This document shows, in pieces, positions 40,427 to 61,931 of a stretch of 64,000 nucleotides of DNA. Source of the DNA: Ostreococcus lucimarinus (lineage: Eukaryota); NCBI GenBank assembly GCA_000092065.1, contig CP000586.1; one strand, given 5' to 3'. The first letter of the stretch is position 1; each line of letters opens with the position of its first letter. The notes beneath the pieces were generated by a model. The model was not told where the DNA came from and did no database searches. It was given only the letters and a program-made list of their open reading frames with translations. The position numbers were made by a program, and so were the translations under genes.

Positions 40427-42772
40427 ATGGTGCGCACGTCTCGCGCGGCGTCGACCGCGGCGTCGTCGGCGAACGGCGACGTCTCGCACGTGACGCGCGG
40501 GACGGCGGTGACGCGCGACGCGACGGCGCCGCGCCGCGAGACGGCGACGGAGGCGTCCGATACACGACGGGTTCGCGGCGCGCGCGCCGGTGGGTTCGTC
40601 TGGGGGCGCGTCGACGCGGTCGGCACCGCGGCGGGGTTCGAGCCGGGGAGGTTTCGGTCGACGCGCGAGGCGCGCGCGACGACGACGCGAGGCGACGGTG
40701 CGGCGACGGATTACATGGACGAGGACGAGCGCGAAGAATACGAGAGCGTGACGCTGCGGGCGAGGGCGAGGTACGATACGTTCGGGGAGGGCGCGCGGGA
40801 GGCGCACAGGGCGATGGCGTGGGATCGGGGGGGGGCGGGGGGGTCGGCGAGCGAGACGCTGGCGCGGTCGGCGGCGGTGACGGATTTGTTCGTCGCGCCG
40901 CGCGAGGACGCGGTCGGGGCGCGGTTGTTGCGGTGCATGGGGTGGCGACGAGGGCGCGTGGGCGGCGGGACGGGCGGTGGGGTGGCGGTGGACGAGGACG
41001 AGACGCCGGCGTACGTCGCGGATCCGAAGAACGATAGGCGAGGCGTCGGGTACGACGCGTTCGCGGGGGCGGAGGAGTTTCGCGACGCGGCGACGCGGCG
41101 GAAGCGCGAGATGGAGCGGGAGAACGCGGGGTTGACGCGCGGGCGCGCGCGGGGGGAGGCGTTCGGCGTGGGGGTGTTCGAGGAAGAGGACGAGGCGCTG
41201 TACACGGAGGACGAGCCGAAATTGAACGAGTACGCGTTTGAGATGGAGGAGGAGGAGGAGGAAGACGAGTCGACGCGCGATCCGAGGGCGCGCGGGAAGG
41301 GCGCCGTGCTGGCGCTCGGCGCGGCGTTACCGAACGATTGTCTCGTGCGCGGGTTTCGCGTGTCGAGCGACACGCTCGCGCCGCCGAAATGGTTCGCGCC
41401 GCCCGTCGTGCCTCGCGACTTTCGGCCGCGCGCCGCGGCGACTTTGAAGGCGTCGATGAAGGCGAGCGCGATGGCGGCGTCGCAGCCCGAACTTCCACCG
41501 AAAGCGCCGCCGCCGGCGAACGAGGAGCGTAAAAAAGTCATCGACACTCTCGCCGCGTTCGTCGCCAGGCACGGGAAAACTTTCGAGGACATGGCCAAGG
41601 CGCGGCAAGGCGAAGACGACGAAAAGTTTTCCTTTCTCTTCGGCGGTAGAGATTCGGGATATTACAAATGGCGTTTGGCCACGGCGATGATCGAACAAAA
41701 CTCCGAAGCCGTGGCGCCACCCGCACGCCGCGCGCGACCGCTCGGAATGGAGGAGCGCGCGAGAATTCTCGGTGAGACGCCCTTGCCCGCGCGCGCCGGC
41801 GGCGGGGCGACGGACGCGCCGGCGCCGGCGCCGGCGCCGAGGCAAAAGTTGAGCATCGACGGCATCGCTGCCGACGATCGCGAGCGCATACAAAAGCTGT
41901 TGAGCAAAACGTTCACGTCAGGTGGCGTCGTGCAAACCGCCAAGGTTGAGAAAGTTGGTCTGCACGTCCTCGAGAAGAGCGCGCCGAAGCCCGCGCCGAA
42001 CGAGGAGGAAGCGGCGGCGCGCGCGGACATGGTTTCGCGCATGCCCATCGTTTCCGCGCGCAACACCATTGACTGGGCACCTGAACCACTGGTGTGCAAA
42101 CGATTCGGAATTCAAGATCCGTTCGCCAACAGAGCGCGTCCGGATACTCAAGAGTATAAATTCCGCACCGACGTCTTGGCGCTCGACGCGACGAGCGCCG
42201 CCGCGCTCGCGAACGCGCCCAAGTATCTGGACGTGCCCCCACCGCCGTCGGCTGTACAATCGACGACGCGTGCTATTCCGCCGCCACCTCCCCCATCGTC
42301 GACATCAGCGCCGCTCCCACCGCCGCCGCCGCCGCCCCGCGCCGCGACAACGATGGTCGAGGTGCCCCCGCCGCCGCCGTTTGTCGAAAAGCCGATGGGG
42401 CTGTTCAAAGCCATCTTCGAAAACTCAGACGACGACGTGGAAGCTGAAGAGGAAGCGAACGAAACGGAAGCGGACCTGGACGCCATCAAGGCGGCGCTTT
42501 CGACGCGATCGGACCCGGCGCCCGTCGAGGAGAAGGCTCGGCAGACCGAGGGACCTGTGTGGTCGTCGGCAGTCATGACAAACCCCGCGGCGGCGAGCGA
42601 GCGGGATTCCGAGAAGCGCAAGCGCTCGAAAAAGAAGAAAGAGAAAAAGGAGAAGAAGGAGAAAAAGCGTTCGAAAGATAGCCGTAGACGACGCAAAAAA
42701 CATAGAAAGCGTTCGAGACGCAACTACGATTCGTCGTCGTCGTCGTCGTCGAGTTCGTACACTAGCGATTGA
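40427..42772 (+). CDS. G-patch + SURP/SWAP domain protein, GPATCH1 / plant TOUGH (TGH)-like, with a C-terminal KR/S-rich tail
   Basis: ATG at 40427. A DUF1604-like N-terminal segment (GGFxxGxxxxVGxxxGxxP). G-patch LLRCMGWRRGRVGGG...GVGYD. SURP motif VIDTLAAFVARHGKTFEDMAKARQGEDDEKFSFLF. A poly-Pro tract, then a KKKEKKEKKEKK..SSSSSSS tail. Confidence 0.7.
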   Translation: MVRTSRAASTAASSANGDVSHVTRGTAVTRDATAPRRETATEASDTRRVRGARAGGFVWGRVDAVGTAAGFEPGRFRSTREARATTTRGDGAATDYMDEDEREEYESVTLRARARYDTFGEGAREAHRAMAWDRGGAGGSASETLARSAAVTDLFVAPREDAVGARLLRCMGWRRGRVGGGTGGGVAVDEDETPAYVADPKNDRRGVGYDAFAGAEEFRDAATRRKREMERENAGLTRGRARGEAFGVGVFEEEDEALYTEDEPKLNEYAFEMEEEEEEDESTRDPRARGKGAVLALGAALPNDCLVRGFRVSSDTLAPPKWFAPPVVPRDFRPRAAATLKASMKASAMAASQPELPPKAPPPANEERKKVIDTLAAFVARHGKTFEDMAKARQGEDDEKFSFLFGGRDSGYYKWRLATAMIEQNSEAVAPPARRARPLGMEERARILGETPLPARAGGGATDAPAPAPAPRQKLSIDGIAADDRERIQKLLSKTFTSGGVVQTAKVEKVGLHVLEKSAPKPAPNEEEAAARADMVSRMPIVSARNTIDWAPEPLVCKRFGIQDPFANRARPDTQEYKFRTDVLALDATSAAALANAPKYLDVPPPPSAVQSTTRAIPPPPPPSSTSAPLPPPPPPPRAATTMVEVPPPPPFVEKPMGLFKAIFENSDDDVEAEEEANETEADLDAIKAALSTRSDPAPVEEKARQTEGPVWSSAVMTNPAAASERDSEKRKRSKKKKEKKEKKEKKRSKDSRRRRKKHRKRSRRNYDSSSSSSSSSYTSD

Positions 42773-42800: not shown

Positions 42801-45800
42801 CTATTCATTTTGCGTTTGCCGCTCCTGCGCGTCTTCGTTCTCGTCGACATCGAAATTAGTAGTCGGCTCAACGCTCGCGCCAATGAAGAAGAAGATGTTC
42901 TTAACCATGGCTTCGCGAATGGATTCAACCAATGACACAAACGCTCGCGCGCCGTCGATGCGAAACTCATCTTTCGGGTCCAAGTGACCGAAGCTTCGCA
43001 CTTGTACGCTACTGCGCAACACCTCCATCTGCACCAAATGCCGCTGCCATAGTTCATCTATGGCGCGAAGAGCCCAAAGTCGCTCGACGCTTTCGAGTTC
43101 GGCGCGATCGTAGTCTTTTGCAGCCAGACGCGCGAATCGATCCAAGTACAGTTGCACGGCGGATTCAGTCAGGTATGAGCGTAAACGCCGAGCCTTCGCC
43201 GCGTGCCAGCCCTTGCTCCAACGACGAATGTACTCCTGCGAGTCGCGGACATCGGACGGTGGAGCTAAACGGTTGCGTAAACGTTCATTTATGGCGGCGT
43301 CCGAAGCTTCTGGTTCGGTGTCTTCCATGAGTGGGCCGACGACGCCCTCCGGCATGACGATTTCAACGCCCGCGATGGCCGCGAGGACGATAGCGGGGGC
43401 CACTTTCAAGGGTGGCATCTCGTGCGGAATGGGTAAATCACCTCCGCTCAATATAGCGTCGCGAATTGAATTCTCCCCGACCGCATTCACGCCCGGAAGG
43501 TAATGCGGCCTGTCGCCCGTGGGTAATCCGCGCGTCAAGGCGATGAAATCTGTTCGACCGATAAACACGCAACGCAGCTCACTCAAGAGCTGTTCGTAAT
43601 TCCACTTTTTCGGGTGAACATTGCCCGAAACACCCGCACGTTCGCACGCGTCGTCGACGACTCTGGCCATATACTTGAACAAGCGCTCACGCAGCGCCGA
43701 CTGGCTGCTCAGCAGAATTTGTCGCCGCAACTTGTACACCGCCTCGCGCTGACCATCGAGCACGCGATCGGATTCGAACGTGGACTGTCGGTGCGATGAC
43801 AGGTAGTCTTCGATTTGCTTTTGAACCATGCGAAGCTGACCGTCGACGATATCCGAGACGATGGGCGAGTACTCATCGACGCCGGCGAACATCCACAACT
43901 TATCGTTTCCCCAACCAGGCATGTACGTTTGTAACAACTCGTCTTCGGCCGACACACAGAAAACCGTACTTCCCGGATCACCCTGACGTGCGGCGCGACC
44001 GCGGAGTTGGTTATCAACGCGTCGACTGTCGTGAATGGAGGTACCGATGACTTGCAATCCGCCGACTTCTCGAACTTCTTCTCGTTCGTCGGAGCACTGC
44101 TTTTGGCAATCTCGCAAGACGTGGTACGCGGCAACGTTGACGAAATGCATCAACACTCGATCCTTATCCCATGCACCCGGCTTCTCCCCTCGACGTAGCA
44201 GTTCCTCTGCCTTGACCAACGCTTCTACCAACAATTCTTCAGCTTGTTCTTCGCTTAGCGATCCCGCCGAGGCAGTGGATTGCGTCGCCACATGCTCCGC
44301 CTGATTGAGCGTGATTTGGGCCTCTTGGGACAGATCAACGTACATGAGCAGAGCTGCGTCACCGATATCCCCTAGATCAAAAGCGGGCCAAAGTTTCTCC
44401 TTCAACGCACGCTTCGCCAAGCCCACAGGGCTACCACCGAGTAGAATGTCGGTACCGCGCCCAGCCATATTTGTGGCGATTGTCACCGCGTACTTTCTCC
44501 CAGCCTGTGCGATGATCTCGGCTTCTCTCGCCGCATACTGCGGACGCGCGTTTAGCAGCTCGTGTGGTACGCCAGCAATTTTGCGCCCATCGTTCGTCAC
44601 CCATCGATGCCGCGAGAGCAAGTCACTCAAAATTTCGGAATTTTCCACCGACGTCGTACCCACGAGTACGGGTCTGCCTTCGGCATGACACCTCTCAATC
44701 AAATCCACGACGGCGTACCATCTCGGTATGCTGTTTAAGAAGAGCGATGTCTGGCTATCTATTCGTAAATTGGGCTTGTTCGTCGGCACGCGCGCCACGC
44801 CGAGATTGTACGTGGTGAAGAACTCTTCCGATTCCGTCGACGCCGTGCCCGTCATGCCGCTCAGTTTCTTGTATAGCTTGAATAGACATTGGTAAGAAAT
44901 GGATGCGATGATTGAATTCTCGCCATTAATTTCTACGCCTTCCTTCGCTTCGACGGCTTGATGCAAGTTATCATTCCATCGCCGATTCATCTGCACTCGC
45001 CCGGTGGACGGATCGACGATGATGACTTTGCCGTCTCGCACAATGTAATCGATGTCCTTGATAAAGAGCGCCCTTGCCTTGACGGCGAGCAGAATGTACT
45101 TGCCCCAAGGGTTTTTTGCATCCCACAGATCGTTCACACCGAGGATCTGCTCCGCGTGCAACATGCCTTCGTCGGTGAGTTCGGCTGTTTTCTCCTTCAA
45201 GACGACTTTGAAGTCGCGCCCGGGGATTAAGCTTTCCGCAACTTTAGCCGCGGTCACGTACTGATCGTCGTCGTTCACGTCGCCCGTGCCAGTGATCAAT
45301 AGCGGATTGCGTCCTTCATCGATTAAGACGCTGTCGACCTCGTCCACGATGGCGAAATTGAACGGACGCGTCAACACGACCAATTCTTCCGCGTCGTTTG
45401 CCATGTTGTCGCGCAAGTAATCGAACCCAATCTCCGTGTTTGTCACATACGTGATGTCACACGCGTACGCCCGCTGCCGCTCCTCTGAAGTCATGTCAGA
45501 TTGAATCACGCCCACCGTGAGTCCTAAGAAACGATATATCCTTCCCATCTCCGTCGCGTCGCGCGCTGCCAAGTAATCGTTCACCGTCACCACGTGCACG
45601 CCCTTGCCATCCAACGCATTCAAATACGCGGGTAAAGTCGCCACCAAAGTCTTTCCCTCCCCTGTACTCATCTCCGCCACCCATCCCTCGTGCAAAAGCG
45701 CCCCCCCGATCAATTGCACGTCGAAATGTGTCAACCCGAGCTCGCGCGTCGACGCCTCTCGCACCACCGCGAACGCCTCCACTAAAATATCGTCCAACGT

Positions 45801-46214
45801 CTCCCCAGCTCGCAGCCGCGCGCGAAACGCGTCCGTCTTCCCGCGCAGTTCATCATTTGTGAGACTCCGCACGTCACGATCCAGCGCTCTAACCGCATCG
45901 ACGACGCGCGTCTGCAGTTCTGCGATTTGCCTAGCGTCGCCGTCTCGCCAGGCGCGGTCGCGTGCGACCGACATCATCGCCGTCGTCGTCGACGTCGACG
46001 CGTGCTCGAGCTCGTCATCGTCGAAGGACGCCGACGCCGACGCACCGATCGATCGCGCGTCGCCGTTCGTCGTCGCTCGCGCGCGCACGGCGGCGATTCG
46101 TCGTCGACTTTGAACCATCTTGCGGTGCGTCGTCGGTCGCCCGTGGTTCGCGCGCGCGCGCGGCACGCGCGACGGTGCGAGCGGCGCGTGCGAGCGCACC
46201 ATACCACGCGCCAT
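42801..46214 (-). CDS. SECA: Preprotein translocase SecA, plastid-type, nuclear-encoded with an N-terminal transit peptide
   Basis: ATG at 46214. An internal ATG at residue 33 could be the true start. DEAD motor MSTGEGKTLVATLPAYLNA, the IDEVDSVLIDEGRNPLLI Walker B, and the full SecA scaffold and wing. A single ORF. Confidence 0.85.
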   Translation of the reverse strand: MARGMVRSHAPLAPSRVPRARANHGRPTTHRKMVQSRRRIAAVRARATTNGDARSIGASASASFDDDELEHASTSTTTAMMSVARDRAWRDGDARQIAELQTRVVDAVRALDRDVRSLTNDELRGKTDAFRARLRAGETLDDILVEAFAVVREASTRELGLTHFDVQLIGGALLHEGWVAEMSTGEGKTLVATLPAYLNALDGKGVHVVTVNDYLAARDATEMGRIYRFLGLTVGVIQSDMTSEERQRAYACDITYVTNTEIGFDYLRDNMANDAEELVVLTRPFNFAIVDEVDSVLIDEGRNPLLITGTGDVNDDDQYVTAAKVAESLIPGRDFKVVLKEKTAELTDEGMLHAEQILGVNDLWDAKNPWGKYILLAVKARALFIKDIDYIVRDGKVIIVDPSTGRVQMNRRWNDNLHQAVEAKEGVEINGENSIIASISYQCLFKLYKKLSGMTGTASTESEEFFTTYNLGVARVPTNKPNLRIDSQTSLFLNSIPRWYAVVDLIERCHAEGRPVLVGTTSVENSEILSDLLSRHRWVTNDGRKIAGVPHELLNARPQYAAREAEIIAQAGRKYAVTIATNMAGRGTDILLGGSPVGLAKRALKEKLWPAFDLGDIGDAALLMYVDLSQEAQITLNQAEHVATQSTASAGSLSEEQAEELLVEALVKAEELLRRGEKPGAWDKDRVLMHFVNVAAYHVLRDCQKQCSDEREEVREVGGLQVIGTSIHDSRRVDNQLRGRAARQGDPGSTVFCVSAEDELLQTYMPGWGNDKLWMFAGVDEYSPIVSDIVDGQLRMVQKQIEDYLSSHRQSTFESDRVLDGQREAVYKLRRQILLSSQSALRERLFKYMARVVDDACERAGVSGNVHPKKWNYEQLLSELRCVFIGRTDFIALTRGLPTGDRPHYLPGVNAVGENSIRDAILSGGDLPIPHEMPPLKVAPAIVLAAIAGVEIVMPEGVVGPLMEDTEPEASDAAINERLRNRLAPPSDVRDSQEYIRRWSKGWHAAKARRLRSYLTESAVQLYLDRFARLAAKDYDRAELESVERLWALRAIDELWQRHLVQMEVLRSSVQVRSFGHLDPKDEFRIDGARAFVSLVESIREAMVKNIFFFIGASVEPTTNFDVDENEDAQERQTQNE

Positions 46215-50748: not shown

Positions 50749-53700
50749 ATGGGCGTCCCGAAGTTTTTCCGATGGCTCGCCGAGCGCTACCCGCTGCTCC
50801 AGCAAGAGATCGCGGGAAATCAGATCCCGGGGATCGATAACTTGTACCTGGACATGAATGGTGTCATTCACAACTGCTCGCACGGCGCAGGGACGGATGT
50901 GAATACGCGAATGACTGAAGACGAGATGATGTCCAAGGTTTTCGCGTATTTGGATCATCTGTTTCGAATGACGCGACCGAATAAGATGCTGTACATGGCG
51001 ATCGATGGCGTGGCACCGCGAGCGAAGATGAACCAACAGCGGAGTCGACGATTTCGAAGCGCGGCGGAGGCGGCGAAGGACCGCGAGGAAGCGCGTGCGA
51101 GAGGCGAACCGGAGCCGGAGGGCGAACCGTTTGATTCCAACTGTATCACGCCGGGGACGGAGTTCATGGCGCGGTTGACGGAACATTTGAAATTCTACGT
51201 GCGTAAGAAGCAAACGGAAGATCCACTTTGGGCAAAGGTGACGGTGATATTGTCTGGGCACGAAGTCAGAGGTGAGGGCGAGCATAAAATCATGGAGCAC
51301 ATTCGATGGGCGCGAACGCAGCCGGACTGGGAGCCGAATCAAACGCACTGTTTGTACGGCCTCGACGCCGATCTTATCATGCTTGCTCTCGTCACGCACG
51401 AACCTCACTTTTGTTTGCTTCGTGAGGTCGTGAAGTTTGGCGGCGGCGAGAAAGGGCAGCCGAGCCGGGAGATTTTGTCCAATCCCACCGACGACGGCTT
51501 CATCTTGTTGCACATCGGCTTGTTGCGCGAGTACTTGGATTTAGAATTCCGCGAAAAGAATCTTCCGTTCGGATACGAGCTCGAGCGCGTCATCGATGAC
51601 TTCATCTTACTGTGCATGCTCGTCGGGAACGATTTCTTGCCCGCTCTGCCGACGCTGAACATCGCCGAGGGCGCGCTGAACACGCTCTTCAAAGTGTACC
51701 ACGACACGTTGCCGATGCTTGGAGGTTATATCACTGGCGATGAAGGGGGGGGTACTTTTAACCCTGAACGTTTGGAGAAGATCATGAGCATCATGGCGAC
51801 GTTCGAGCGACAGGTGTTGGAAGAGCGCGCGATGGATGTCGAGAAGGAAGAGGAGAAGAAGTCTCGACGAAAAGGTCGCAACGGTGGTTCCGCGTCCGAT
51901 CTCACTCCCGAGGAGAAGTTCGACAAGGATTTGAGTGAGATGAGCGACACCGAAGGCGTGCCACAAGTTTCTGCCGACCCGACAATGATGAACGCTGCGA
52001 AGCGGGCGCTGATTCTCGAAGGTGGCGAGGAGGGCTTGCAAGCGTGGAAGGATACGTACTATCGCGAAAAGCTCGGTTTGAAGATTGGCGAAGCTGCACC
52101 GCTGGGTGAAATTAGACAAGCTTATTTCGATGGTTTGAACTGGGTCTTGCGTTACTACTATCGTGGTGTTGCGTCCTGGACTTGGTACTATCCCTACCAT
52201 TACGCGCCGATGGCGAGCGACTTGTGCGCCGGCATGGGCGGTCTCACGTCTGAGTTCGATTACGGCGAACCGTTCAAACCTTTCGAGCAGCTCATGGCTG
52301 TACAACCACCATCGAGCTCCAAGTTACTCCCCGAGCCATTCCGCCACTTCATGGAAGATCCGCAGTCGCCCTTGGCTGAGTTCTTCCCGGAAGACATCAA
52401 AGTTGACTTTGAAGGCAAGCGCAACGACTGGGAAGGCGTCGTGCTGTTGCCCTTTTTGGACGCCGATCGCTTGAAGGCTGCGGTCGCTTCCGTGGAACCG
52501 TCGCAGCTGACTGCTGGTCAAATCGCGCGAAATGTGCCCGGTAATCTTATATATTTCAACCACGCCCCCTCGGGCGCGGGAGACGTGCAGAGCACTTTGC
52601 CAAAGTCCTTTGCAGGCTTGTTTCCGGCGAAGAGTAAGATGACCATGCGCATGCCGCCGGGCGAGTTCCCGGATGAGATGAAGTGCTTCGGTGGCGAAGA
52701 TTCCGTGTTTCCAGGAACGACGCTTGGTTTAGACAGTCCAAGCGGCTTCCCGACGATCCGCACACTCCCCGTGTCGGGGTCTTTGAAAACCGCAGGCGTC
52801 AAAGTGTTTGGAAACGCGTCGAAGAAGGAATCGCTCATCATTCAAATCAACGGCGTAGACGTAAACTTGGTCGGAAACTTGGCGGGAGTCGGTGCGAAGG
52901 ACATTGCTCCAAGTCTCGTGAATAAACGTGTGCAAATTAAGTGGCCATATCTCCAAGAAGCTCTCGTCGTGGGCGTTTCCGACTCGAAGGAACGCATCGT
53001 TCCCGTTATCGGCAAGCCAAACGAGTTAGCAAGCAAGCCGAATAATGCCACGGAATGGAGCGCGGACATGGAAAAGGTTACCCGCGAGTATCTCGAGAAG
53101 TACGGTGTTAGTGCAGGGCGTTCGAACATTGCGCTACATTGCCGTGCGTGCGAAGGGCTCGTGAGACATCCGGACGGATCTTTGCAGAAGCGTTTCTCCA
53201 AGACAGAGATGACGGTGCCGATTCAGCTCGTCATCGCCAAGCACAACGCCCCTTCGACGCGTATGGACGAGCGTCCCGCGCTCGACGTCGGTGAGTCTAC
53301 TGGTGATTTCGTCGACGGTGATGTCGCGCTGTTCCTGGGTCGCTCAAACTTTGGAGCGCTGGCTGTCGTCACGGATGTTTCCCCCGCTGGTTTGGGCGTC
53401 TCGCTTCACCCCGTGCCTCTGGACACTGGCTTGTCGCGCCGCATTTTAAAAGGCGTTGGACAACGTTACATGGCCAGCGGTGAGATGGCACGTAAACTAG
53501 GAGTGAACCCGAAAGTTATCGGTTGCCTCACGGGCGCGGTCTGGGTGCAAGAGAGCGCCAAGGCGTCTCGCGGCGATCGCGTCGACGTCGGTCTGAACTT
53601 GAAGCACAATGGTAAAATGTTGTGCGTCGCGGGCTACTGTCGCCCGACACAAGGCGACAAGCCGGGTTGGGAATACAGTCAAGAGGCGTTGCGAGTGTTG

Positions 53701-55026
53701 CAAGAGTACAAGCGTGCGCATCATTGGGTTTTCGCCGCGGTCGATGCCGTTGATGACATGCGCGACGGAATCAACCTCGAAGACTTCATGGCGGACACGC
53801 CCGAGGCTGGACGTCTCGCCGCAGTCAAGGGCGTGAAGGCGTGGTTAAAGGCGCATCCCATCGCACGCCGGCCGCTTGTGCCAGCTTCGTCACAAGTCGC
53901 GACGGAGGAAGCGATTCGAACGCTCGTGAGCACGACCGCCGGTGGTGGTAAGCAGCCCAAGGTGGTCGATCTCGAGGGCGTGTCTCCGCTCTTGCTCATG
54001 CGCCCGGTGACCGAAGGTGCCATCGTCGACTTGTACGCCGGTGGTGATTTCGAACTCGGCGATCGCGTCATCATGGTAGGAGACAGTGGTCAACCCGCGT
54101 TTGGTTCGCGCGGCGCGATCGTCGCCGTGCACACGTACACGGACGCGCACACGCAAGACGCGCACGCTGAATCTGTGGAAGTGTTGTTCGACGAAGACTT
54201 TGTCGGCGGTAACGATCTTCACGGTATGATTCCAAACAAACGCGGCGCCATGCTTCCGGTGGCGCAGCTCATCAACTTGTCGCACCCGCCTGCAATGCCG
54301 AACCTCGGCAGCGCGGCGCCCAAGGTTGTGGTTAAAGACGCCAAGGGTGATATGAGCGCTCCGACGCAGTGGAGCGAGCGGGCGCCCAAGATCGAACGCG
54401 AAGTCGTCGTGCAGCCGAAACTCCCCGAGAAGGACAGCAAGGGCTTCGCCAGCGCGAAGGGCGCTGGTCGGGGCAAGGCGAAAGCAAGCGCCGCTCCGTC
54501 ACCAGCGATGATTCCGAGTAACGCGCGCATGCTCTCGATGTTGAACAACGCCAAGATTGCCTCCGTCGAAGCCAAGGCGGCCAAGCCGAAGAAGGCACCG
54601 ATGAGCGTGGCCGAGCTCGAGGCGCAAATGCTCAAGATGATGTCGCCTCCGAAACCACCGGCCAAGCCCGCGGATGGGTTGAAAAAGAAGCCGATGAGCA
54701 TCAAGGAGTTGGAGGAGAGCATCTTGGCCGCCGCCGCCTCTGGCGACGCGCCGCCCGCGCCGCCGGGCCCCAAACCGACCGAATCCCCCAACCCTCCGCG
54801 CAAGCCGAGAACGAAGAAACCAGTCGCCGCCGAGCCCGCCGCAACGCCACCGCTCCCTCCGACCCCACCACCGATGCCATCCGCCGCCATGCTGTCGAAA
54901 ACCGCCGCGAACGACGCGTCCGAACCCGCGTCGAGCGCCGAAGCCGAAGCCGAAGCCGAAGCCGAAGCCAAGCCCGCGACTCGCCGCATGGTTCCCCGCT
55001 TCCTTCTTCGCACCGGTAAATCGTGA
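50749..55026 (+). CDS. XRN: 5'-3' exoribonuclease (XRN family) with a long C-terminal extension. It ends in a (GCCGAA)5 tract coding an AEAEAEAEAE repeat
   Basis: ATG at 50749. N-terminal nuclease domain MGVPKFFRWLAERYPLLQQEI...LYLDMNGVIHNC plus the conserved XRN core to about 650 aa. A low-complexity basic, proline-rich tail. The hexamer repeat lies at 54937..54966. Confidence 0.85.
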   Translation: MGVPKFFRWLAERYPLLQQEIAGNQIPGIDNLYLDMNGVIHNCSHGAGTDVNTRMTEDEMMSKVFAYLDHLFRMTRPNKMLYMAIDGVAPRAKMNQQRSRRFRSAAEAAKDREEARARGEPEPEGEPFDSNCITPGTEFMARLTEHLKFYVRKKQTEDPLWAKVTVILSGHEVRGEGEHKIMEHIRWARTQPDWEPNQTHCLYGLDADLIMLALVTHEPHFCLLREVVKFGGGEKGQPSREILSNPTDDGFILLHIGLLREYLDLEFREKNLPFGYELERVIDDFILLCMLVGNDFLPALPTLNIAEGALNTLFKVYHDTLPMLGGYITGDEGGGTFNPERLEKIMSIMATFERQVLEERAMDVEKEEEKKSRRKGRNGGSASDLTPEEKFDKDLSEMSDTEGVPQVSADPTMMNAAKRALILEGGEEGLQAWKDTYYREKLGLKIGEAAPLGEIRQAYFDGLNWVLRYYYRGVASWTWYYPYHYAPMASDLCAGMGGLTSEFDYGEPFKPFEQLMAVQPPSSSKLLPEPFRHFMEDPQSPLAEFFPEDIKVDFEGKRNDWEGVVLLPFLDADRLKAAVASVEPSQLTAGQIARNVPGNLIYFNHAPSGAGDVQSTLPKSFAGLFPAKSKMTMRMPPGEFPDEMKCFGGEDSVFPGTTLGLDSPSGFPTIRTLPVSGSLKTAGVKVFGNASKKESLIIQINGVDVNLVGNLAGVGAKDIAPSLVNKRVQIKWPYLQEALVVGVSDSKERIVPVIGKPNELASKPNNATEWSADMEKVTREYLEKYGVSAGRSNIALHCRACEGLVRHPDGSLQKRFSKTEMTVPIQLVIAKHNAPSTRMDERPALDVGESTGDFVDGDVALFLGRSNFGALAVVTDVSPAGLGVSLHPVPLDTGLSRRILKGVGQRYMASGEMARKLGVNPKVIGCLTGAVWVQESAKASRGDRVDVGLNLKHNGKMLCVAGYCRPTQGDKPGWEYSQEALRVLQEYKRAHHWVFAAVDAVDDMRDGINLEDFMADTPEAGRLAAVKGVKAWLKAHPIARRPLVPASSQVATEEAIRTLVSTTAGGGKQPKVVDLEGVSPLLLMRPVTEGAIVDLYAGGDFELGDRVIMVGDSGQPAFGSRGAIVAVHTYTDAHTQDAHAESVEVLFDEDFVGGNDLHGMIPNKRGAMLPVAQLINLSHPPAMPNLGSAAPKVVVKDAKGDMSAPTQWSERAPKIEREVVVQPKLPEKDSKGFASAKGAGRGKAKASAAPSPAMIPSNARMLSMLNNAKIASVEAKAAKPKKAPMSVAELEAQMLKMMSPPKPPAKPADGLKKKPMSIKELEESILAAAASGDAPPAPPGPKPTESPNPPRKPRTKKPVAAEPAATPPLPPTPPPMPSAAMLSKTAANDASEPASSAEAEAEAEAEAKPATRRMVPRFLLRTGKS

Positions 55027-55224
55027 TCTGAGATTTGATTCGTAGAGACGTCGTCTCGACGGCGTCGGTATAACACGTTTGTAGTAGATCTGTACGCGTC
55101 TCGCTCGCGCCGTCCTCGCTCGGAGGGTTTAGGCCTCGCTGGCTGCCCGCTTATCCATCATCGCATCTTGTCGCCCGTCGCCCGCTTCGCGCGCGCACTT
55201 CGCGTCGCTCGCGGTCTCGACGCG

Positions 55225-56013
55225 ATGTTCGCGCGCACGACGTCCACGCCCGCCGCCCTCGCGCGCGCGACGCCTCGCGCTTCGCGCGCCGCGCCGCGCA
55301 CCGCCGCCGCGCGCCCGTCGTCGTCATCGATCGCGCGCGTCGGCGTCGCCGCGCGCGCGCCTCGCGCGGTGCGCGCGCCGACCGCGCGCGCCGACCGAAC
55401 CGCCGTCGTCTCGCGCGGCTTGTTCGACGGCGATAAGGACGAAGGCGGCACCGCGACGGCGCGCGTGAGCACGGACGCGGTGATGATCGACCCGGTGGTC
55501 GGCGCGAAACGCTTCAGCAACTACTTCTGGGCGGGCGTCGTCACCGCGGGCAGCACGGGATTCCTGCTCACCGGCGCGTCGGCGTACCTGCACCACAACC
55601 TGGTGTTTTTCCTCGACGCGACGGACATCAAGTTCTTCCCGCAGGGATTGGTGATGTCGTTTTACGGCGTCGCCGGCGCGATGCTCGCGACGTATCTCTG
55701 GTTGACGATTTCCTGGGACGTCGGCGCCGGATACAACGAATTCAACAAGGATGAGGGAATCATGCGAATTTTCCGCTACGGGTTCCCGGGGAAGAATCGT
55801 CGGGTGAATCTGGTGAGCGATCTCGCCGACGTGCAGGCGGTTCGCGTGGAGATCAGCGAGGGCGTCAACCCGCGGCGCGTGGTGTACGTTCGATGCAAGG
55901 GCAAGCGCGACATCCCGCTCACCCGCATCGGGCAACCGCTGACGCTGGCGGAGGTGGAGCAGCGCGCGGCGGATTTGGCCAAGTTTTTGCAGGTTCCGAT
56001 CGAGGGTCTTTGA
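55225..56013 (+). CDS. ycf4: Photosystem I assembly protein Ycf4, nuclear-encoded, with an N-terminal plastid transit-peptide-like extension of about 80 aa
   Basis: ATG at 55225. The ORF-track start at 55168 is TTG. The mature region KRFSNYFWAGVV...FFPQGLVMSFYGVAGAML..YLWLTISWDVGAGYNEFNKDEGIMRIFRYGFPGKNRRV...PLTRIGQPLTLAEVEQRAADLAKFLQVPIEGL is collinear with plastid Ycf4. The extension is rich in A, R, S and T. Confidence 0.8.
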   Translation: MFARTTSTPAALARATPRASRAAPRTAAARPSSSSIARVGVAARAPRAVRAPTARADRTAVVSRGLFDGDKDEGGTATARVSTDAVMIDPVVGAKRFSNYFWAGVVTAGSTGFLLTGASAYLHHNLVFFLDATDIKFFPQGLVMSFYGVAGAMLATYLWLTISWDVGAGYNEFNKDEGIMRIFRYGFPGKNRRVNLVSDLADVQAVRVEISEGVNPRRVVYVRCKGKRDIPLTRIGQPLTLAEVEQRAADLAKFLQVPIEGL

Positions 56014-56121
56014 CGCATCCTCGTCCTCGCGTCCGCCTTTGCTTTAATCATTGATTTATTCAACCTTAGCGCACCACATTCGCCGCTTCGTTCGCGCGCC
56101 TCAGTCCGCGACGCCCGCGCG

Positions 56122-57276
56122 ATGCCGCGCGAGCGCGTCCGCGACGTCACCGCCGTCGACGTCGACCTCGCGCGCGCGCCGCGCGACGTCCTGACGCGCC
56201 TCGCCGACGAATTGCGACCGCGACTCGACGCCGCCGCGCGCGCCGCGCGCGACGCCTCGCGCGTGTTCTCGCGCGAGCGCGCGCTCCTGGACGCGCTGCG
56301 AAGGAAATCGCGCGCGCAGCACCGGGCGTCGAAGCATCACGGCGCGCTGACGCGCGCGTGCGCGCGCGGGAGGACGTACGACGCGCAGGAGGCGGTGGCG
56401 AAGCTCGAGGCGTTGGCGCGAGACGTCGACGCGTGCGCGCGCGACTCGCGGTTGGCGTACGGAAACGATGCGCTCGTCGTGCCGGCGCGCGCGCGCGCGG
56501 ACGAGGCGATGCGAGCGGCGTGCGCGGCGTGCGCGGTCCTGAGCGAGCTGCAGGGAGCGGGAGAGGATTGCGTGGAGGCGTTCGCGGGGCAGCTCGGTCG
56601 CGGGTACTTCATGGCGCTGAGCGCGACGGCGACGGCGTGCGCGAGTCGGGTGCGGTGCGAGAGCGCGCGGGTGTTGCGGGCGCTCGTCGGCGCGTATAAC
56701 GTCGTGGTGGACGTTCGGGAACACTTACCGCCGCCGGGAAGGTACGACGCGGCGTTCGGGCGACGGCCGCCGGCGGAGTTGCGCGTGGCGACGGCGGCGG
56801 ACGGCGGCGTGCGCGCGACGCCCGTGGGCGACGACGAGGTGCGCGCGGACGAGGAATTGGACGTGTTTTGGGCGTCGGCCGTATCGAACGCGCGAGAGGG
56901 CGCAGAACTGAGCGCAGATGTGAACGTGGAGGCGGACGACGAGCTGAGCGAGCTCGGCGTTCGCGTCGATCGCGACGACGTCGCCGAACGCGACGTCATC
57001 AGGGTGGCGAAGCAGTCGCAAGTGCCTCAGGCTAAGGCGCGAAAATACGAGCGCACTGTGAGTGTGGCGTCGCCATTCGGCGCGCTCACCGCCGCTCCCG
57101 CTGTTTTAAACCCATTCGCGCCGAAAAAACGTCGAAGAAAGAAGAAGGGCGGCGGCGAGGAGCCGCCGACGGCGGGGAAAAAGAAGAAACCGAAGCGGAG
57201 CGACGCGCCAAAAACTGCCGCAGACGCGTTCGAGCGATTGCGTCAAATAAGCTCGTACGGAGGCGGGCCCGACTAG
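56122..57276 (+). CDS. Hypothetical nuclear protein, Ala/Arg-rich, with a C-terminal KKRRRKKK basic (NLS-like) tail
   Basis: ATG at 56122. ORF with normal composition in its centre and C-terminus (GRGYFMALSATATACASRVRCESARVLRALVGAYNVV). No family confidently recognised. Confidence 0.4.
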   Translation: MPRERVRDVTAVDVDLARAPRDVLTRLADELRPRLDAAARAARDASRVFSRERALLDALRRKSRAQHRASKHHGALTRACARGRTYDAQEAVAKLEALARDVDACARDSRLAYGNDALVVPARARADEAMRAACAACAVLSELQGAGEDCVEAFAGQLGRGYFMALSATATACASRVRCESARVLRALVGAYNVVVDVREHLPPPGRYDAAFGRRPPAELRVATAADGGVRATPVGDDEVRADEELDVFWASAVSNAREGAELSADVNVEADDELSELGVRVDRDDVAERDVIRVAKQSQVPQAKARKYERTVSVASPFGALTAAPAVLNPFAPKKRRRKKKGGGEEPPTAGKKKKPKRSDAPKTAADAFERLRQISSYGGGPD

Positions 57277-57396: not shown

Positions 57397-58137
57397 TCAG
57401 CTCATGAGCGCGAGTATCTCGTCTCTGAAAAGCAACCACTGCCCCGCGATTTCACGCCCGACGTCGCGCGTCAAGCGCGCGTCGTCATACATGACCGCCG
57501 CGGCGATCGCCATCCAAAATACCGCCCACAACCCGGCGAGCGCGAGCGCCACGCGCGTGGTCGCGCCCACCACCACACCGACGCACATCACGAACGTCTC
57601 CGGCGTCCATCGTTTCACGTTCGCGCCGCGTTCGCCCTTCGCGACAGCGACGGCGTCGCCATCGTCGTTCGCCCCGCGACCGGCGATTTCGCACGCCTCT
57701 GGCGACGCCTCGAACGCCGCGTTCTCCCGCGTCGACCACGTCGTCTTCGACCGTTTCACCGCGCTATCGATGTCGCCGTCGCCGTGACGCGCCACGCGAT
57801 CGTCCGCATCGCGCGTCACGAGCGCTTTCCGTTCCGCCTTGACCGCGCGTTCCAACGCTTCGATGCGTCGCTCGTGCCTTTCCGTCATCGCGTCCAGCGC
57901 GTTCGCCATCTCTTCGAGCTCGCGTCGGCTCGCCCGCGCGAGCTGCGTCGCCTTGTTCGCGTCCGCGGAAACGGCGTCTTTGACGTTACGCAGGCGCGTG
58001 CTGAACGTTTCGAGCGCGTCGTCGACGGCGCGTTGAAGCGCGTCGAGACGGACCGAGAGCGCGTCGTCGGCGGCGGTCGTCGTTCGCGCGCGCGCGTCGT
58101 CGCGCGCGGGCGCGCCCGCGAGCGAGACGTCGTGCAT
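57397..58137 (-). CDS. Hypothetical coiled-coil protein with a C-terminal transmembrane anchor
   Basis: ATG at 58137. Heptad-like charged segment (RELEEMANALDAMTERHERRIEALERAVKAERKAL). A hydrophobic stretch (FVMCVGVVVGATTRVALALAGLWAVFWMAIAAAVMY). The overlapping plus-strand ORF 57319..58728 is an Arg-rich shadow. Confidence 0.4.
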   Translation of the reverse strand: MHDVSLAGAPARDDARARTTTAADDALSVRLDALQRAVDDALETFSTRLRNVKDAVSADANKATQLARASRRELEEMANALDAMTERHERRIEALERAVKAERKALVTRDADDRVARHGDGDIDSAVKRSKTTWSTRENAAFEASPEACEIAGRGANDDGDAVAVAKGERGANVKRWTPETFVMCVGVVVGATTRVALALAGLWAVFWMAIAAAVMYDDARLTRDVGREIAGQWLLFRDEILALMS

Positions 58138-58272: not shown

Positions 58273-59619
58273 TTAATCGTACTCCACACCGGCGAACGCG
58301 AGGCCCAAAGCCGGTGCGGGCGGAGCCGCGGCCCGACGCTCGCGCGACCGGGCGATTCTGAGCAGGACGTCGTCGTCGCCGGCGAAGACGGCGGCTTCGC
58401 GAATCGTCGTGGCGACGAGACAGCGAATCAACTTGCGCAAGAAACGGTCTGCGACGAGCTCGATGACGATGACTTCGTCGGCGTCGATGTCGGTGATGTC
58501 GATGGTGTCGTCGTGAGCGTCGTTTCGGCTTTTCGAGCGCCGAACGCCGGCGGTGACTTTGGAGTCGTTGTCGCTGTCGGCGCCGTCGCCGGGCGGCGAA
58601 GGCAATTTCGCCTCGAACGCCCTCGCGACGCGAAACGTGACGACGGAACTCTTCCCAGGCGGCGTGCCTCGCGCGAAGGCGTGCATATCGATCGGCGCGT
58701 TCGCGCACTCGCGCACGAGCGCGGCTAAGATTCGATCGATGATGCGCGCGTCCAAATCAGCCTTCGGCGTGCGCGACTCGCGAAACGCCTGATTCTTCGG
58801 CAAGCAATACACGTACCGTCGACTCTTCGCCGCGAATGTCGCGTGAAACGCCGAGCCCGTCTCGCGCACGTCCGACACGCGCAACAGACCCGCTTTGCCC
58901 GGCGCTGAATCCTCATTCACCAACCGCTCAATCTCCGCCGCGGAGATGGCGTCCGACTTGCTCCAAAGCGATACGCAGCTGGCGAGCGCGCTCACGCCGC
59001 GATCCGTCCTCCCCGCCGACGGCGTCGGGCGCGTCTTATCCAACACCGGTCGCAGCGCCAACTGCAACGCCGCCGACACCGACGCGCACCCCGGCTCGAA
59101 CGTCCCGTCGTACGCGAAATCCCTCGACGCGTTCCACGCGAAGCCCGCGAACGACGGCCCGTGATACGTACACTTCGCCGCGAACGTCCTTCGTCCTTCC
59201 CTGCGTCTTCGCCCCCCGCTCGCGCCCGCGTCGTCGCCGCTCGCGAACACGATTTCCGCCGCGCTCAATCCGAGCTCGCGCAGGCACGCGTCGCCTCGCA
59301 CGCACCGCCTGAAGAATCGCTCGACGCCGCGCCACGGCCTGTCGTCCGCGAACGCGCTCTGCTGCACCGGGTCCCAGCGCCCGACGTTGAACTCGCATCC
59401 GGCCGTCGCGCCGTCGTCGAGGACCAGGGTTTGACACGGATGTCGCGTCGCGACGCGCGCGTCGTCGCTCGCGTTCGCGTCGCTCGCGTCGCTCGCCCGC
59501 GACGTCGCGCCGACCGGCGGCGGGACGCGCGCGGTCGCCATCGACCCGCGACGCGCGCGCGCGCGCGCGGCGCGCGCGCGCGACGTTCGAGACGCTCGCG
59601 CGACGCGCGCGAGACGCAT
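58273..59619 (-). CDS. tRNA pseudouridine synthase, TruA/Pus family, with an Arg-rich N-terminal presequence-like extension
   Basis: First ATG at 59619. An alternative start lies at 59541. Catalytic motif GRTDRGVSA. Also YHGPSFAGFAW and RRYVYCLP. Confidence 0.65.
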   Translation of the reverse strand: MRLARVARASRTSRARAARARARRGSMATARVPPPVGATSRASDASDANASDDARVATRHPCQTLVLDDGATAGCEFNVGRWDPVQQSAFADDRPWRGVERFFRRCVRGDACLRELGLSAAEIVFASGDDAGASGGRRRREGRRTFAAKCTYHGPSFAGFAWNASRDFAYDGTFEPGCASVSAALQLALRPVLDKTRPTPSAGRTDRGVSALASCVSLWSKSDAISAAEIERLVNEDSAPGKAGLLRVSDVRETGSAFHATFAAKSRRYVYCLPKNQAFRESRTPKADLDARIIDRILAALVRECANAPIDMHAFARGTPPGKSSVVTFRVARAFEAKLPSPPGDGADSDNDSKVTAGVRRSKSRNDAHDDTIDITDIDADEVIVIELVADRFLRKLIRCLVATTIREAAVFAGDDDVLLRIARSRERRAAAPPAPALGLAFAGVEYD

Positions 59620-60296: not shown

Positions 60297-61931
60297 ATGC
60301 GGAAACGTGCTGACGTCGGTGGATCGATGGCGTACGAGACGATGACACCGGCGTCGCACGGTGAGGGCGAGGACGACGCGACGGCGACGAGCGAGTCAAA
60401 CGCTTTGACCAACGGGATTTTCAAAAGCGGAGATACACGTAAACACGCGCGCGCGGAGACGCCACCGACGCTTCGGGATGCTGCGTGGGACTGGATAAGC
60501 GTACAAGCATGCATCGTCGCAGGCATCATCGTGATAACTGGCTACTTTTCCTTCATATCCACCGGTACGTGGCGCAAGTGCGTGAAATCTCTCGACGTAG
60601 ACCTGCGTGATGCTTCGGGGCGAGAAGAAGTCATTCGAACGTTTCTACGCTGCACTTTCGCGCGCGAACGAGGTAAAAACTATCGACCGTGGCGAATGGG
60701 TGACTTTTCCGTGCTCTTCGTGCGGCTGTCGACGATCACATTTTACGGCGAGGTGATTTTTCACCAGATGAGCGCGTGGCACGTCTCAAAATATCGTAAG
60801 TGGCGCACAAAGTTCGCCGTGCAATCGTTCGCGCAAATGTACATCGTTTACTTTGTCATGATATCGATTTTGGGGTATCACTCGACATATTCTCACATTG
60901 TCGTCCTGAACTCCTTTAGTGCGCTCTTCCTTTGCGGTGCGACGGCGAAGGAGTTTTGGAACACAAAAGGTTTGAGTTGGTTCTGGACGTACTTTTTTGG
61001 ACCTGGCATCATCGGTAGGCCAGTGGTTGAATTCTTCCTCGTCATCGTCGCCGATCCGAACGTTAGCGCGCCTCTCAAGCTCGCCGTGCGGTTCATTTTT
61101 CTGCCCTTACTGTGGGAAACTTTTCGCGGTTTTGAAAGGCACTTCACGAGGTTGAATCCGTCTCCTGGGCCGTGCCTTAATCTTCCGTATTTCATCTCTA
61201 GCACGCTCCAGGAGTCCTTCGTCTCGAGGTATGTGATGTTTCTGCTCTCTGCGGGCGGTGCGGTGAAAAGCATGGCAACCGTGCAGGCGATACTGGCTTT
61301 ACACGAACTCATGATGAACGTCGTGCAGAAGGATCGAGACGTGCACTTGGTTAAGTTATTCCTCGGAAAACAGTCCGCGGAAGCTCTGCTCGTGTCGCGC
61401 AAGCAGCACGATATCGTTGCCTTAAACTCAATCGTCTCTTCATTCGCAGAGATTTGTGCAATCATCGTGATTTCTCTGTACTTGTATGTCTTTCGCATGG
61501 CGAGCGAAGGCAACGAGGACGTCGTCGACTTGAAGGCGTACGGTGTGCAGGCGATAAACTTGATAGCGATCGAAATGGTGCTTTCGTTCTTCATCATGTA
61601 CGTTCAGCAACGGTTCCACGGTATACGACACGGCGATGTTTTCCCTAAAGGGTATTTTTTACGCAAGGGAAGATGGCTCGCCGTGAGCTATAAATTCGTC
61701 GTTTTTCTGTGGATCACCGCCATGATGGCGCACAAGGTGACAATTTATCTCGTTGGTAATCAGTTCCACAAGTACCTGTGCCCGCGTATCAACGATGATG
61801 GGAGCGTCTTCACCTTTCAATGTTCGACAGAGGATTACAAACTCGCGCCAGGAGGGTTTTACTACAACTCGGAGGCGTGGTTGATTCAACAGTACGACTA
61901 TCCCGTCGCCGTTTTGTCGGACAAGGGGTAG
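60297..61931 (+). CDS. Multi-pass membrane protein of unknown family
   Basis: ATG at 60297. About 10 hydrophobic segments. Markedly lower GC (about 50%) than most of the window. A TGTAA signal 64 nt after the stop. No recognisable motif. Confidence 0.5.
   Translation: MRKRADVGGSMAYETMTPASHGEGEDDATATSESNALTNGIFKSGDTRKHARAETPPTLRDAAWDWISVQACIVAGIIVITGYFSFISTGTWRKCVKSLDVDLRDASGREEVIRTFLRCTFARERGKNYRPWRMGDFSVLFVRLSTITFYGEVIFHQMSAWHVSKYRKWRTKFAVQSFAQMYIVYFVMISILGYHSTYSHIVVLNSFSALFLCGATAKEFWNTKGLSWFWTYFFGPGIIGRPVVEFFLVIVADPNVSAPLKLAVRFIFLPLLWETFRGFERHFTRLNPSPGPCLNLPYFISSTLQESFVSRYVMFLLSAGGAVKSMATVQAILALHELMMNVVQKDRDVHLVKLFLGKQSAEALLVSRKQHDIVALNSIVSSFAEICAIIVISLYLYVFRMASEGNEDVVDLKAYGVQAINLIAIEMVLSFFIMYVQQRFHGIRHGDVFPKGYFLRKGRWLAVSYKFVVFLWITAMMAHKVTIYLVGNQFHKYLCPRINDDGSVFTFQCSTEDYKLAPGGFYYNSEAWLIQQYDYPVAVLSDKG

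Follow-up and report, generated by a model that had tools for sequence, protein, structure and literature searches.

The 64,000-nucleotide stretch of Ostreococcus lucimarinus DNA analyzed here (contig CP000586.1 of assembly GCA_000092065.1; hereafter the window) carries at positions 55225-56013 what is, with a probability that we put at about 0.9, a functional nuclear gene for the photosystem I (PSI) assembly protein Ycf4; under this reading ycf4 left the plastid genome in an ancestor of the Mamiellales and has since become fully adapted to the nucleus. Standard accounts name Ycf4 as one of just two PSI assembly factors encoded in the plastid. The proposal that the locus represents a functional plastid-to-nucleus transfer was first made in an earlier note drawn from the DNA letters, and it is backed by base composition, purifying selection, the properties of an N-terminal presequence, nuclear synteny, and a confidently predicted fold for the mature part of the protein. 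The nuclear gene is not in itself a new discovery, being lineage-wide in Ostreococcus, Micromonas, and Bathycoccus and already present in databases and in a table published in 2017 (PMC5643376).

By every sequence and fold criterion tried, the protein belongs to the Ycf4 family. Its match to the Pfam Ycf4 profile (PF02392; E 8.8e-77, 256.8 bits against a cut-off of 34.7) spans profile positions 2-170 of 170 in a single stretch, and the domain is therefore free of introns and frameshifts. The earlier note was thus right to describe a full-length homolog collinear with the family as far as the C-terminal FLxVxIEGL, which here reads FLQVPIEGL. In an alignment of 35 cyanobacterial, plastid, and nuclear Ycf4 sequences the window protein keeps all 37 invariant columns; E245 is among the invariant positions and E243 is conserved in at least 90 % of the sequences. 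In Chlamydomonas, the E179/181Q mutant of Ycf4 is blocked in PSI assembly (review, PMC11449065), and the two residues altered there probably correspond to E243 and E245, although the alignment from which this is read contains no Chlamydomonas sequence.

An AlphaFold model computed from the same 35-sequence alignment (mean predicted local confidence, pLDDT, 78.9) is well defined from residue 81 onward, where pLDDT is mostly 85-97 and the chain forms a two-helix hairpin (Table 1), a beta domain with strands between residues 169 and 224, and a C-terminal helix at 241-255. When the model of residues 81-262 was compared with solved structures, the closest was EROS/CYBC1 (8kei, chain D; Foldseek E 3.3e-6, TM-score 0.66 on the target, 183 aligned columns), followed in rank by bacterial and eukaryotic PH domains; in the model, a two-helix hairpin carries the PH-like domain that makes up the soluble part of Ycf4. 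EROS/CYBC1, an endoplasmic reticulum (ER) chaperone of NADPH oxidase 2, likewise pairs a two-helix membrane hairpin with a PH-like domain that comes after it, but it is an animal, ER-resident protein with an unrelated client and only 16 % identity to Ycf4, and so is a relative in fold only. EROS was reportedly described as a Ycf4 homolog in the original paper on it. Searched by sequence, the PDB yielded no experimental structure of Ycf4 itself.

The start of the gene was established by reading the DNA directly. XRN1, the gene upstream, has its stop codon at 55026, no ATG occurs between 55027 and 55224, and the first ATG beyond the stop, at 55225, is in frame. The mechanically called open reading frame (ORF) on the plus strand extends from 55168 to 56013 and gives 281 residues when counted from its TTG; the ATG at 55225, already favored over that TTG in the earlier note, is the true start and yields a protein of 262 residues, the last codon of which is followed by TGA. 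The Pfam match accordingly occupies residues 104-272 of the mechanical ORF and residues 85-253 of the protein. Gene callers applied to metagenomes give the identical 262-residue product, the start at 55168 being used by prokaryote-style gene calls only (the 281-residue P0122), and contigs from 386 blocks of marine metagenome assemblies encode the exact 262-residue protein, in every case flanked by XRN1 and a NEPRO_N-like gene.

The codon usage of the gene is nuclear, as had been claimed. Its G+C content at third codon positions (GC3) is 0.87, close to that of its neighbors (0.84 for the three downstream genes, 0.69 for XRN1) and far from the 0.14 of a plastid ycf4 residing in an rpl19-ycf4-cemA-petA cluster. 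Over the 182 codons of the mature part, the ratio of nonsynonymous to synonymous substitution (dN/dS; Nei-Gojobori method) is 0.116 against an O. tauri-like sequence, 0.133 against Micromonas pusilla, and 0.138 against a Bathycoccus-like sequence. The Ycf4 domain is intact and strongly constrained by purifying selection. In O. tauri, a late-night diel cluster of transcripts includes 'photosystem I assembly protein Ycf4' along with chloroplast-biogenesis genes (Monnier et al., 2010; PMC2850359). As a separate observation, EukProt lists a Micromonas-type Ycf4 (P0174) under the pelagophyte Pelagococcus subviridis; this entry probably reflects Micromonas contamination of that set, which is assumed to be a transcriptome, and if so the gene is transcribed.

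Ahead of the conserved domain lies an N-terminal extension of approximately 75-85 residues, encoded by DNA with a G+C content of 0.81, that has no counterpart in organellar or bacterial Ycf4: in the 35-sequence alignment, the plastid and cyanobacterial proteins start opposite residue ~75 of this one. Its description as an extension of some 80 residues rich in alanine, arginine, serine, and threonine holds up well. Residues 1-56 contain 11 arginines and no aspartate, glutamate, or lysine, and the 86 residues ahead of the conserved IDPV are 71 % A+R+S+T+P with a net charge of +9. In the AlphaFold model, residues 1-80 are disordered (pLDDT ~50) and lack secondary structure. Seven orthologs from Ostreococcus, Micromonas, and a Bathycoccus-like source have extensions of 78-128 residues that are alike in character and unrelated in sequence. 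Amino-acid identity between the presequence and those of orthologs is 30-37 %, and dN/dS over the first 80 codons is 0.85 against the O. tauri-like contig and 0.96 against M. pusilla (dS is saturated against the Bathycoccus-like contig); the presequence is drifting almost neutrally while its composition is retained. These features would suit a stromal-targeting role, and the extension is a putative cleavable transit peptide ahead of a two-span thylakoid protein.

The surroundings of the gene are those of a nuclear locus. Three proteins encoded in the window are identical to RefSeq proteins of O. lucimarinus CCE9901 (XP_001418273.1, XP_001418280.1, and XP_001418281.1), and the window is therefore nuclear DNA of this species. 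Ycf4 lies, as the earlier note had stated, between XRN and another nuclear gene, the latter being the NEPRO_N-like gene for XP_001418280.1. The order XRN1-Ycf4-NEPRO-like is common to Ostreococcus, the whole neighborhood being collinear with an O. tauri-like contig (L009). In M. pusilla CCMP1545, SecA stands directly upstream of Ycf4 in the same relative orientation as in the window, with a SURP/DUF1604 gene alongside (L008, 3510-7198 and 19-639). The SURP gene and SecA lie 9-15 kb upstream of Ycf4 in the window, and four genes, encoding a DUF2389 protein, an MBOAT protein, a protoporphyrinogen-oxidase-like (PPOX-like) protein, and XRN1, separate SecA from Ycf4 in Ostreococcus. A linkage block of SURP/SecA and Ycf4 has survived the split between Ostreococcus and Micromonas.

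Nuclear Ycf4 proteins also differ from their organellar and bacterial relatives in the hydrophobicity of their membrane helices. In a comparison of 11 nuclear with 17 plastid or cyanobacterial sequences, the mean Kyte-Doolittle score of helix 1 is 0.92 versus 1.19 (0.91 in the window protein) and that of helix 2 is 1.43 versus 1.95 (1.41 in the window protein), the ranges for helix 2 being disjoint (1.26-1.58 in nuclear and 1.66-2.37 in plastid or cyanobacterial proteins). Helix hydrophobicity is lowered in the low-GC Bathycoccus-like Ycf4 as well. This reduction fits the idea that high hydrophobicity hinders the relocation of organelle genes; since the nuclear sequences form a single clade, they amount to one evolutionary observation and not eleven. 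If the reduction was either required for relocation or an adaptive response to it, Ycf4 would provide a clear natural experiment on the hydrophobicity barrier as the reason why genes for membrane proteins remain in organelles.

Several points weigh against the reading of this locus as a completed, functional transfer. Helix 1, at 0.91, scores under the usual hydropathy thresholds for a membrane span, and because its hydropathy is so low, membrane insertion is deduced from homology together with the predicted helix. The transit-peptide role is predicted from composition and disorder. Transcript support comes from O. tauri and not from O. lucimarinus itself, while the absence of a plastid copy is taken from a published accession table (PMC5643376) and from RefSeq accession types. 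Lastly, in a neighbor-joining tree the nuclear clade stands beside the sampled green plastid sequences, which are monophyletic at 89 %, and is not nested among them next to Pyramimonas.

That tree (38 sequences, 189 columns, 300 bootstraps scored as bipartition counts) unites all N-extended or nuclear Ycf4 sequences in a clade with 99 % support, as it does the Mamiellales nuclear copies (99 %), and groups the cyanobacteria at 100 %. In the phylogeny called for in the earlier note, the nuclear copies thus form one clade apart from cyanobacteria but are not nested within chlorophyte plastid sequences. A long-branch or compositional artefact is the likely cause of this placement, and the addition of Nostocales sequences did not place the donor, the tree then reducing to three clades. 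Horizontal acquisition from a cyanobacterium or another alga, with later replacement of the plastid gene, would also account for the distance between the nuclear clade and Pyramimonas, whose lineage is sister to the Mamiellophyceae in plastid phylogenies (PMC4194372) and whose Ycf4 is of plastid type (186 residues, with no N-terminal extension). It can further draw on the nearly equal identity of the window protein to a cyanobacterial (60 %) and the Pyramimonas (59 %) Ycf4, and on the resemblance of the Micromonas C-terminus, FLGVPIEGL, to the cyanobacterial FLGVPLEGL. Such an origin is nonetheless improbable: the sampled cyanobacteria form a fully supported clade of their own, and the sequences that match best beyond the nuclear clade are Chlorokybus-type proteins of green plastids (64-66 % identity, E ~1e-77), ahead of the best cyanobacterial one (E 1e-69). 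Shared states such as the C-terminal motif can be retained ancestral characters, and the large compositional shift that followed transfer would be expected to bias a distance tree built on 189 columns. The simplest reading remains a single transfer in the ancestor of the Mamiellales or earlier, for which parsimony and best-hit identity suggest the host's own plastid lineage as donor.

Were the plastome of O. lucimarinus to keep its own ycf4, the nuclear gene would be a second and possibly specialized assembly factor, and transitional states with both copies do occur for other transferred organelle genes. The available evidence makes such a duplication very unlikely. For Ycf4 of O. tauri and M. 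commoda, a published table gives nuclear accessions only (XP_003079977.1 and XP_002507870.1), whereas it uses plastid YP_ accessions for their Ycf3, PsaA, and comparable proteins (Table S1 of Sobotka et al., 2017; PMC5643376). The transfer, moreover, predates the split of the three genera, which leaves ample time for the plastid copy to have been lost. Three contigs bearing plastid-sized or plastid-type homologs were opened and none yielded a Mamiellales plastid ycf4, although this is not proof of absence: that of P0074 is cyanobacterial, that of P0070 is a plastid contig with chlB, tilS, rpl19, and secG, and that of P0056 is a plastid contig with the order rpl19-ycf4-cemA-petA-ycf65, the chlB, tilS, and ycf65 genes marking the latter two as plastids of other lineages. 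To our knowledge, the published Ostreococcus and Micromonas plastomes lack the marker genes found on the P0070 and P0056 contigs. No explicit statement that Mamiellales plastomes lack ycf4 was found in a literature search that covered the running text of prasinophyte plastome papers other than those for O. tauri and for Monomastix/Pyramimonas.

A nuclear insert of plastid DNA, recent and unexpressed, in which the ycf4 frame persisted by chance, for which only the general fact that ycf4 is usually plastid-encoded can be cited, is ruled out by the composition and selection data given above (GC3 of 0.87 against 0.14, dN/dS of 0.12-0.14 across genera) and sits equally ill with flanks of XRN1 and a NEPRO-like gene where plastid contigs have rpl19 and cemA-petA, with a position that Ostreococcus species have in common and a linkage to SecA that extends to Micromonas, and with an in-frame presequence in every ortholog.

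For the preferred reading of a single ancestral transfer, the question of age is raised by two further groups of sequences that fall inside the 99 % nuclear clade. One is a second nuclear Ycf4 group (L011 5908-6576, L012 5971-6606, and L013) from a GC-rich (66-69 %) alga, in which the flanking genes encode CD36, cullin, and RWP-RK proteins; the L011/L012-group proteins are 68-69 % identical to the window Ycf4, and since the ORF has no in-frame upstream ATG, the presequence probably lies on a separate exon. The candidates P0057 and P0059, considered as short plastid-type proteins, were rejected as such, their contigs being GC-rich with nuclear genes; they too lack an upstream ATG, and a 5' intron is likely. 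The other group (P0053 and P0055, proteins from sequencing-run assemblies) is more divergent, at 53-58 % identity, and has Arg/Ala-rich extensions of ~80 residues. These groups hint, tentatively, at a transfer that predates the three sequenced Mamiellales genera and reaches beyond them, although we lean slightly away from this wider scope. Every member of the clade has membrane helices less hydrophobic than those of any plastid or cyanobacterial Ycf4 sampled.

How the relocated gene would serve the plastid can be sketched from its predicted features. Once ycf4 had left the chloroplast genome in the ancestor of Ostreococcus, Micromonas, and Bathycoccus, the precursor would be made on cytosolic ribosomes, and the first ~60-80 residues would act as a stromal transit peptide, directing import via TOC/TIC before being cleaved. 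The mature protein, of ~185 residues, would then enter the thylakoid membrane by its two-helix hairpin. Following the pattern of Chlamydomonas and tobacco, the oligomeric protein would serve there as a scaffold on which newly synthesized PsaA-PsaB receives the stromal ridge and the peripheral subunits. Softer helices may plausibly have aided the transfer through less mis-sorting to the ER and easier import. In Chlamydomonas, tobacco, and Synechocystis, mature Ycf4 is a two-span thylakoid protein and a PSI assembly scaffold (review, PMC11449065), and the function of the Mamiellales protein is presumed to be the same as that of plastid and cyanobacterial Ycf4. By this analogy, the only novelty would be the route taken, that is, cytosolic synthesis, import, cleavage, and membrane insertion.

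Plastid (Chlamydomonas, tobacco) and cyanobacterial Ycf4 belong to the same Pfam family, are collinear with the window protein, and share with it the hairpin, the soluble domain, and the invariant residues, with the E-x-E motif among them. They differ in being encoded on an organellar or bacterial chromosome, in lacking a presequence, and in having more hydrophobic helices, and the plastid genes are AT-rich and usually located in a ycf4-cemA-petA cluster. The nuclear clade is further set apart by the motif FR[YRF]GFPG, where all others have FRWGFPG, an otherwise invariant Trp having been replaced by Tyr, Arg, or Phe. Other plastid-to-nucleus transfers in green algae include psbM in Chlorodendrophyceae (PMC4743939) and psaI in Chlamydomonas (PMC11449065). 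The process is the same, in that the gene for a small thylakoid protein leaves a shrinking plastome and works from the nucleus, but these are other genes in other lineages, and Ycf4 is a two-span assembly factor rather than a one-helix subunit. The locus can be regarded as a textbook case of completed endosymbiotic gene transfer, with a presequence gained, codons reset, helices softened, and synteny fixed; because one lineage runs Ycf4 from the nucleus, there can be no absolute need for its encoding in the organelle.

Nuclear orthologs are recorded for O. tauri (XP_003079977 / CEF98447, 'Photosystem I Ycf4, assembly', on a 793-kb chromosome) and for M. pusilla CCMP1545 (XP_003062175, on the 952-kb scaffold GG663745.1), and a further one lies on a low-GC, Bathycoccus-like contig. 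O. tauri Ycf4 shares 92 % identity in the mature part and the same kind of presequence, although the presequences themselves are only 37 % identical; its locus likewise has XRN1 upstream, and the NEPRO-like gene, a pseudouridine synthase gene, and ORFs of 544 and 625 residues downstream. The proteins of M. pusilla (XP_003062175) and M. commoda (XP_002507870) are also nuclear, GC3-rich, and presequence-bearing, with 86-89 % identity in the mature part. In M. pusilla, SecA and a SURP-domain gene are nearby, as in the window, but the direct neighbors of Ycf4 are SecA and a dynein heavy chain gene instead of XRN1 and the NEPRO-like gene.

Two peculiarities of ortholog gene models were observed. 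The RefSeq Ycf4 of O. tauri (P0013, XP_003079977.2) has 198 residues and begins at an internal Met (MFGGPKDSAG...), while a near-identical contig (P0012; L009 1198-1962) gives 254 residues, of which the 56 extra N-terminal ones have transit-peptide character; the RefSeq model is probably truncated at its 5' end. In Micromonas-type sequences (P0037, P0051, and P0054, on contigs of up to 2.25 Mb), the gene calls carry ~60-90 residues of junk after the YLW motif of helix 2, which would represent read-through of an unspliced intron; some Micromonas lineages appear to have acquired a spliceosomal intron within the relocated ycf4.

Table 1. Positions of the Ycf4 gene, its predicted parts, and selected neighboring genes in the window
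Feature	Coordinates	Strand	Basis or remark
Ycf4 coding sequence	55225..56013	+	262 codons + TGA, uninterrupted; ORF and first ATG read, PF02392 match
In-frame leader from TTG of mechanical ORF to ATG	55168..55224	+	Most likely 5' untranslated region
Presequence, residues ~1-80, putative chloroplast transit peptide	55225..55464	+	Composition, disorder, absence from plastid and cyanobacterial Ycf4
Ycf4 domain, residues 85-253	55477..55983	+	Collinear with whole Pfam profile
Predicted membrane helix 1, residues 97-122	55513..55590	+	AlphaFold; homologous to TM1 of plastid Ycf4
Predicted membrane helix 2, residues 137-163	55633..55713	+	AlphaFold
Soluble beta-sheet (PH-like) domain and C-terminal helix, predicted	55729..56010	+	Has E243-x-E245 motif and FLQVPIEGL end
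Spacer after XRN1 stop, 198 nt	55027..55224	+	Must hold promoter and 5' untranslated region
Spacer to ATG of next gene, 108 nt	56014..56121	+	3' untranslated region and terminator region
XRN1 5'-3' exoribonuclease, upstream neighbor	50749..55026	+	Five XRN Pfam domains
NEPRO_N-like protein, downstream neighbor	56122..57276	+	Identical to O. lucimarinus XP_001418280.1
SecA, 9 kb upstream of Ycf4	42801..46214	-	Pfam SecA domains
SURP/DUF1604 gene	40427..42772	+	Beside SecA
Midasin, ~5,800 residues	21769..39857	-	Two long ORFs split by two short introns

The treatment of the locus in the O. lucimarinus reference is a separate matter. The exact 262-residue Ycf4 has no record in NCBI nr, UniRef, or RefSeq, unlike its neighbors, and the longest contig recorded for it measures 263,744 bp; XP_001418280.1 and XP_001418281.1, the products of nearby genes at 56122-57276 and 60297-61931, are recorded on the 818,664-bp reference chromosome. 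The accession numbers of these two proteins are consecutive, yet two minus-strand ORFs (57397-58137 and 58273-59619) lie between their genes. As the Ycf4 product is unrecorded while its neighbors are recorded, an annotation gap is suggested, and the reference annotation of O. lucimarinus CCE9901 may lack Ycf4 and some neighboring genes. The practical value of the locus is small and lies in this probable gap, in the probably truncated O. tauri model, and in the hydrophobicity comparison.

The 108-nt spacer 3' of Ycf4 contains one AT-rich patch. Other genes in the window encode myosin, an ammonium transporter, TOP3B, SPT5, a Glu/Gln-tRNA synthetase, and midasin, as well as the SURP-domain protein, SecA, the MBOAT and protoporphyrinogen-oxidase-like proteins, and XRN1 already mentioned. 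The two midasin introns, at ~36432-36347 and ~36026-35745, have GT..AG ends and CTGAC-like branch sites, and the midasin gene covers the stretch of lowest G+C content in the window, at 52-57 % compared with 65-71 % in its flanks.

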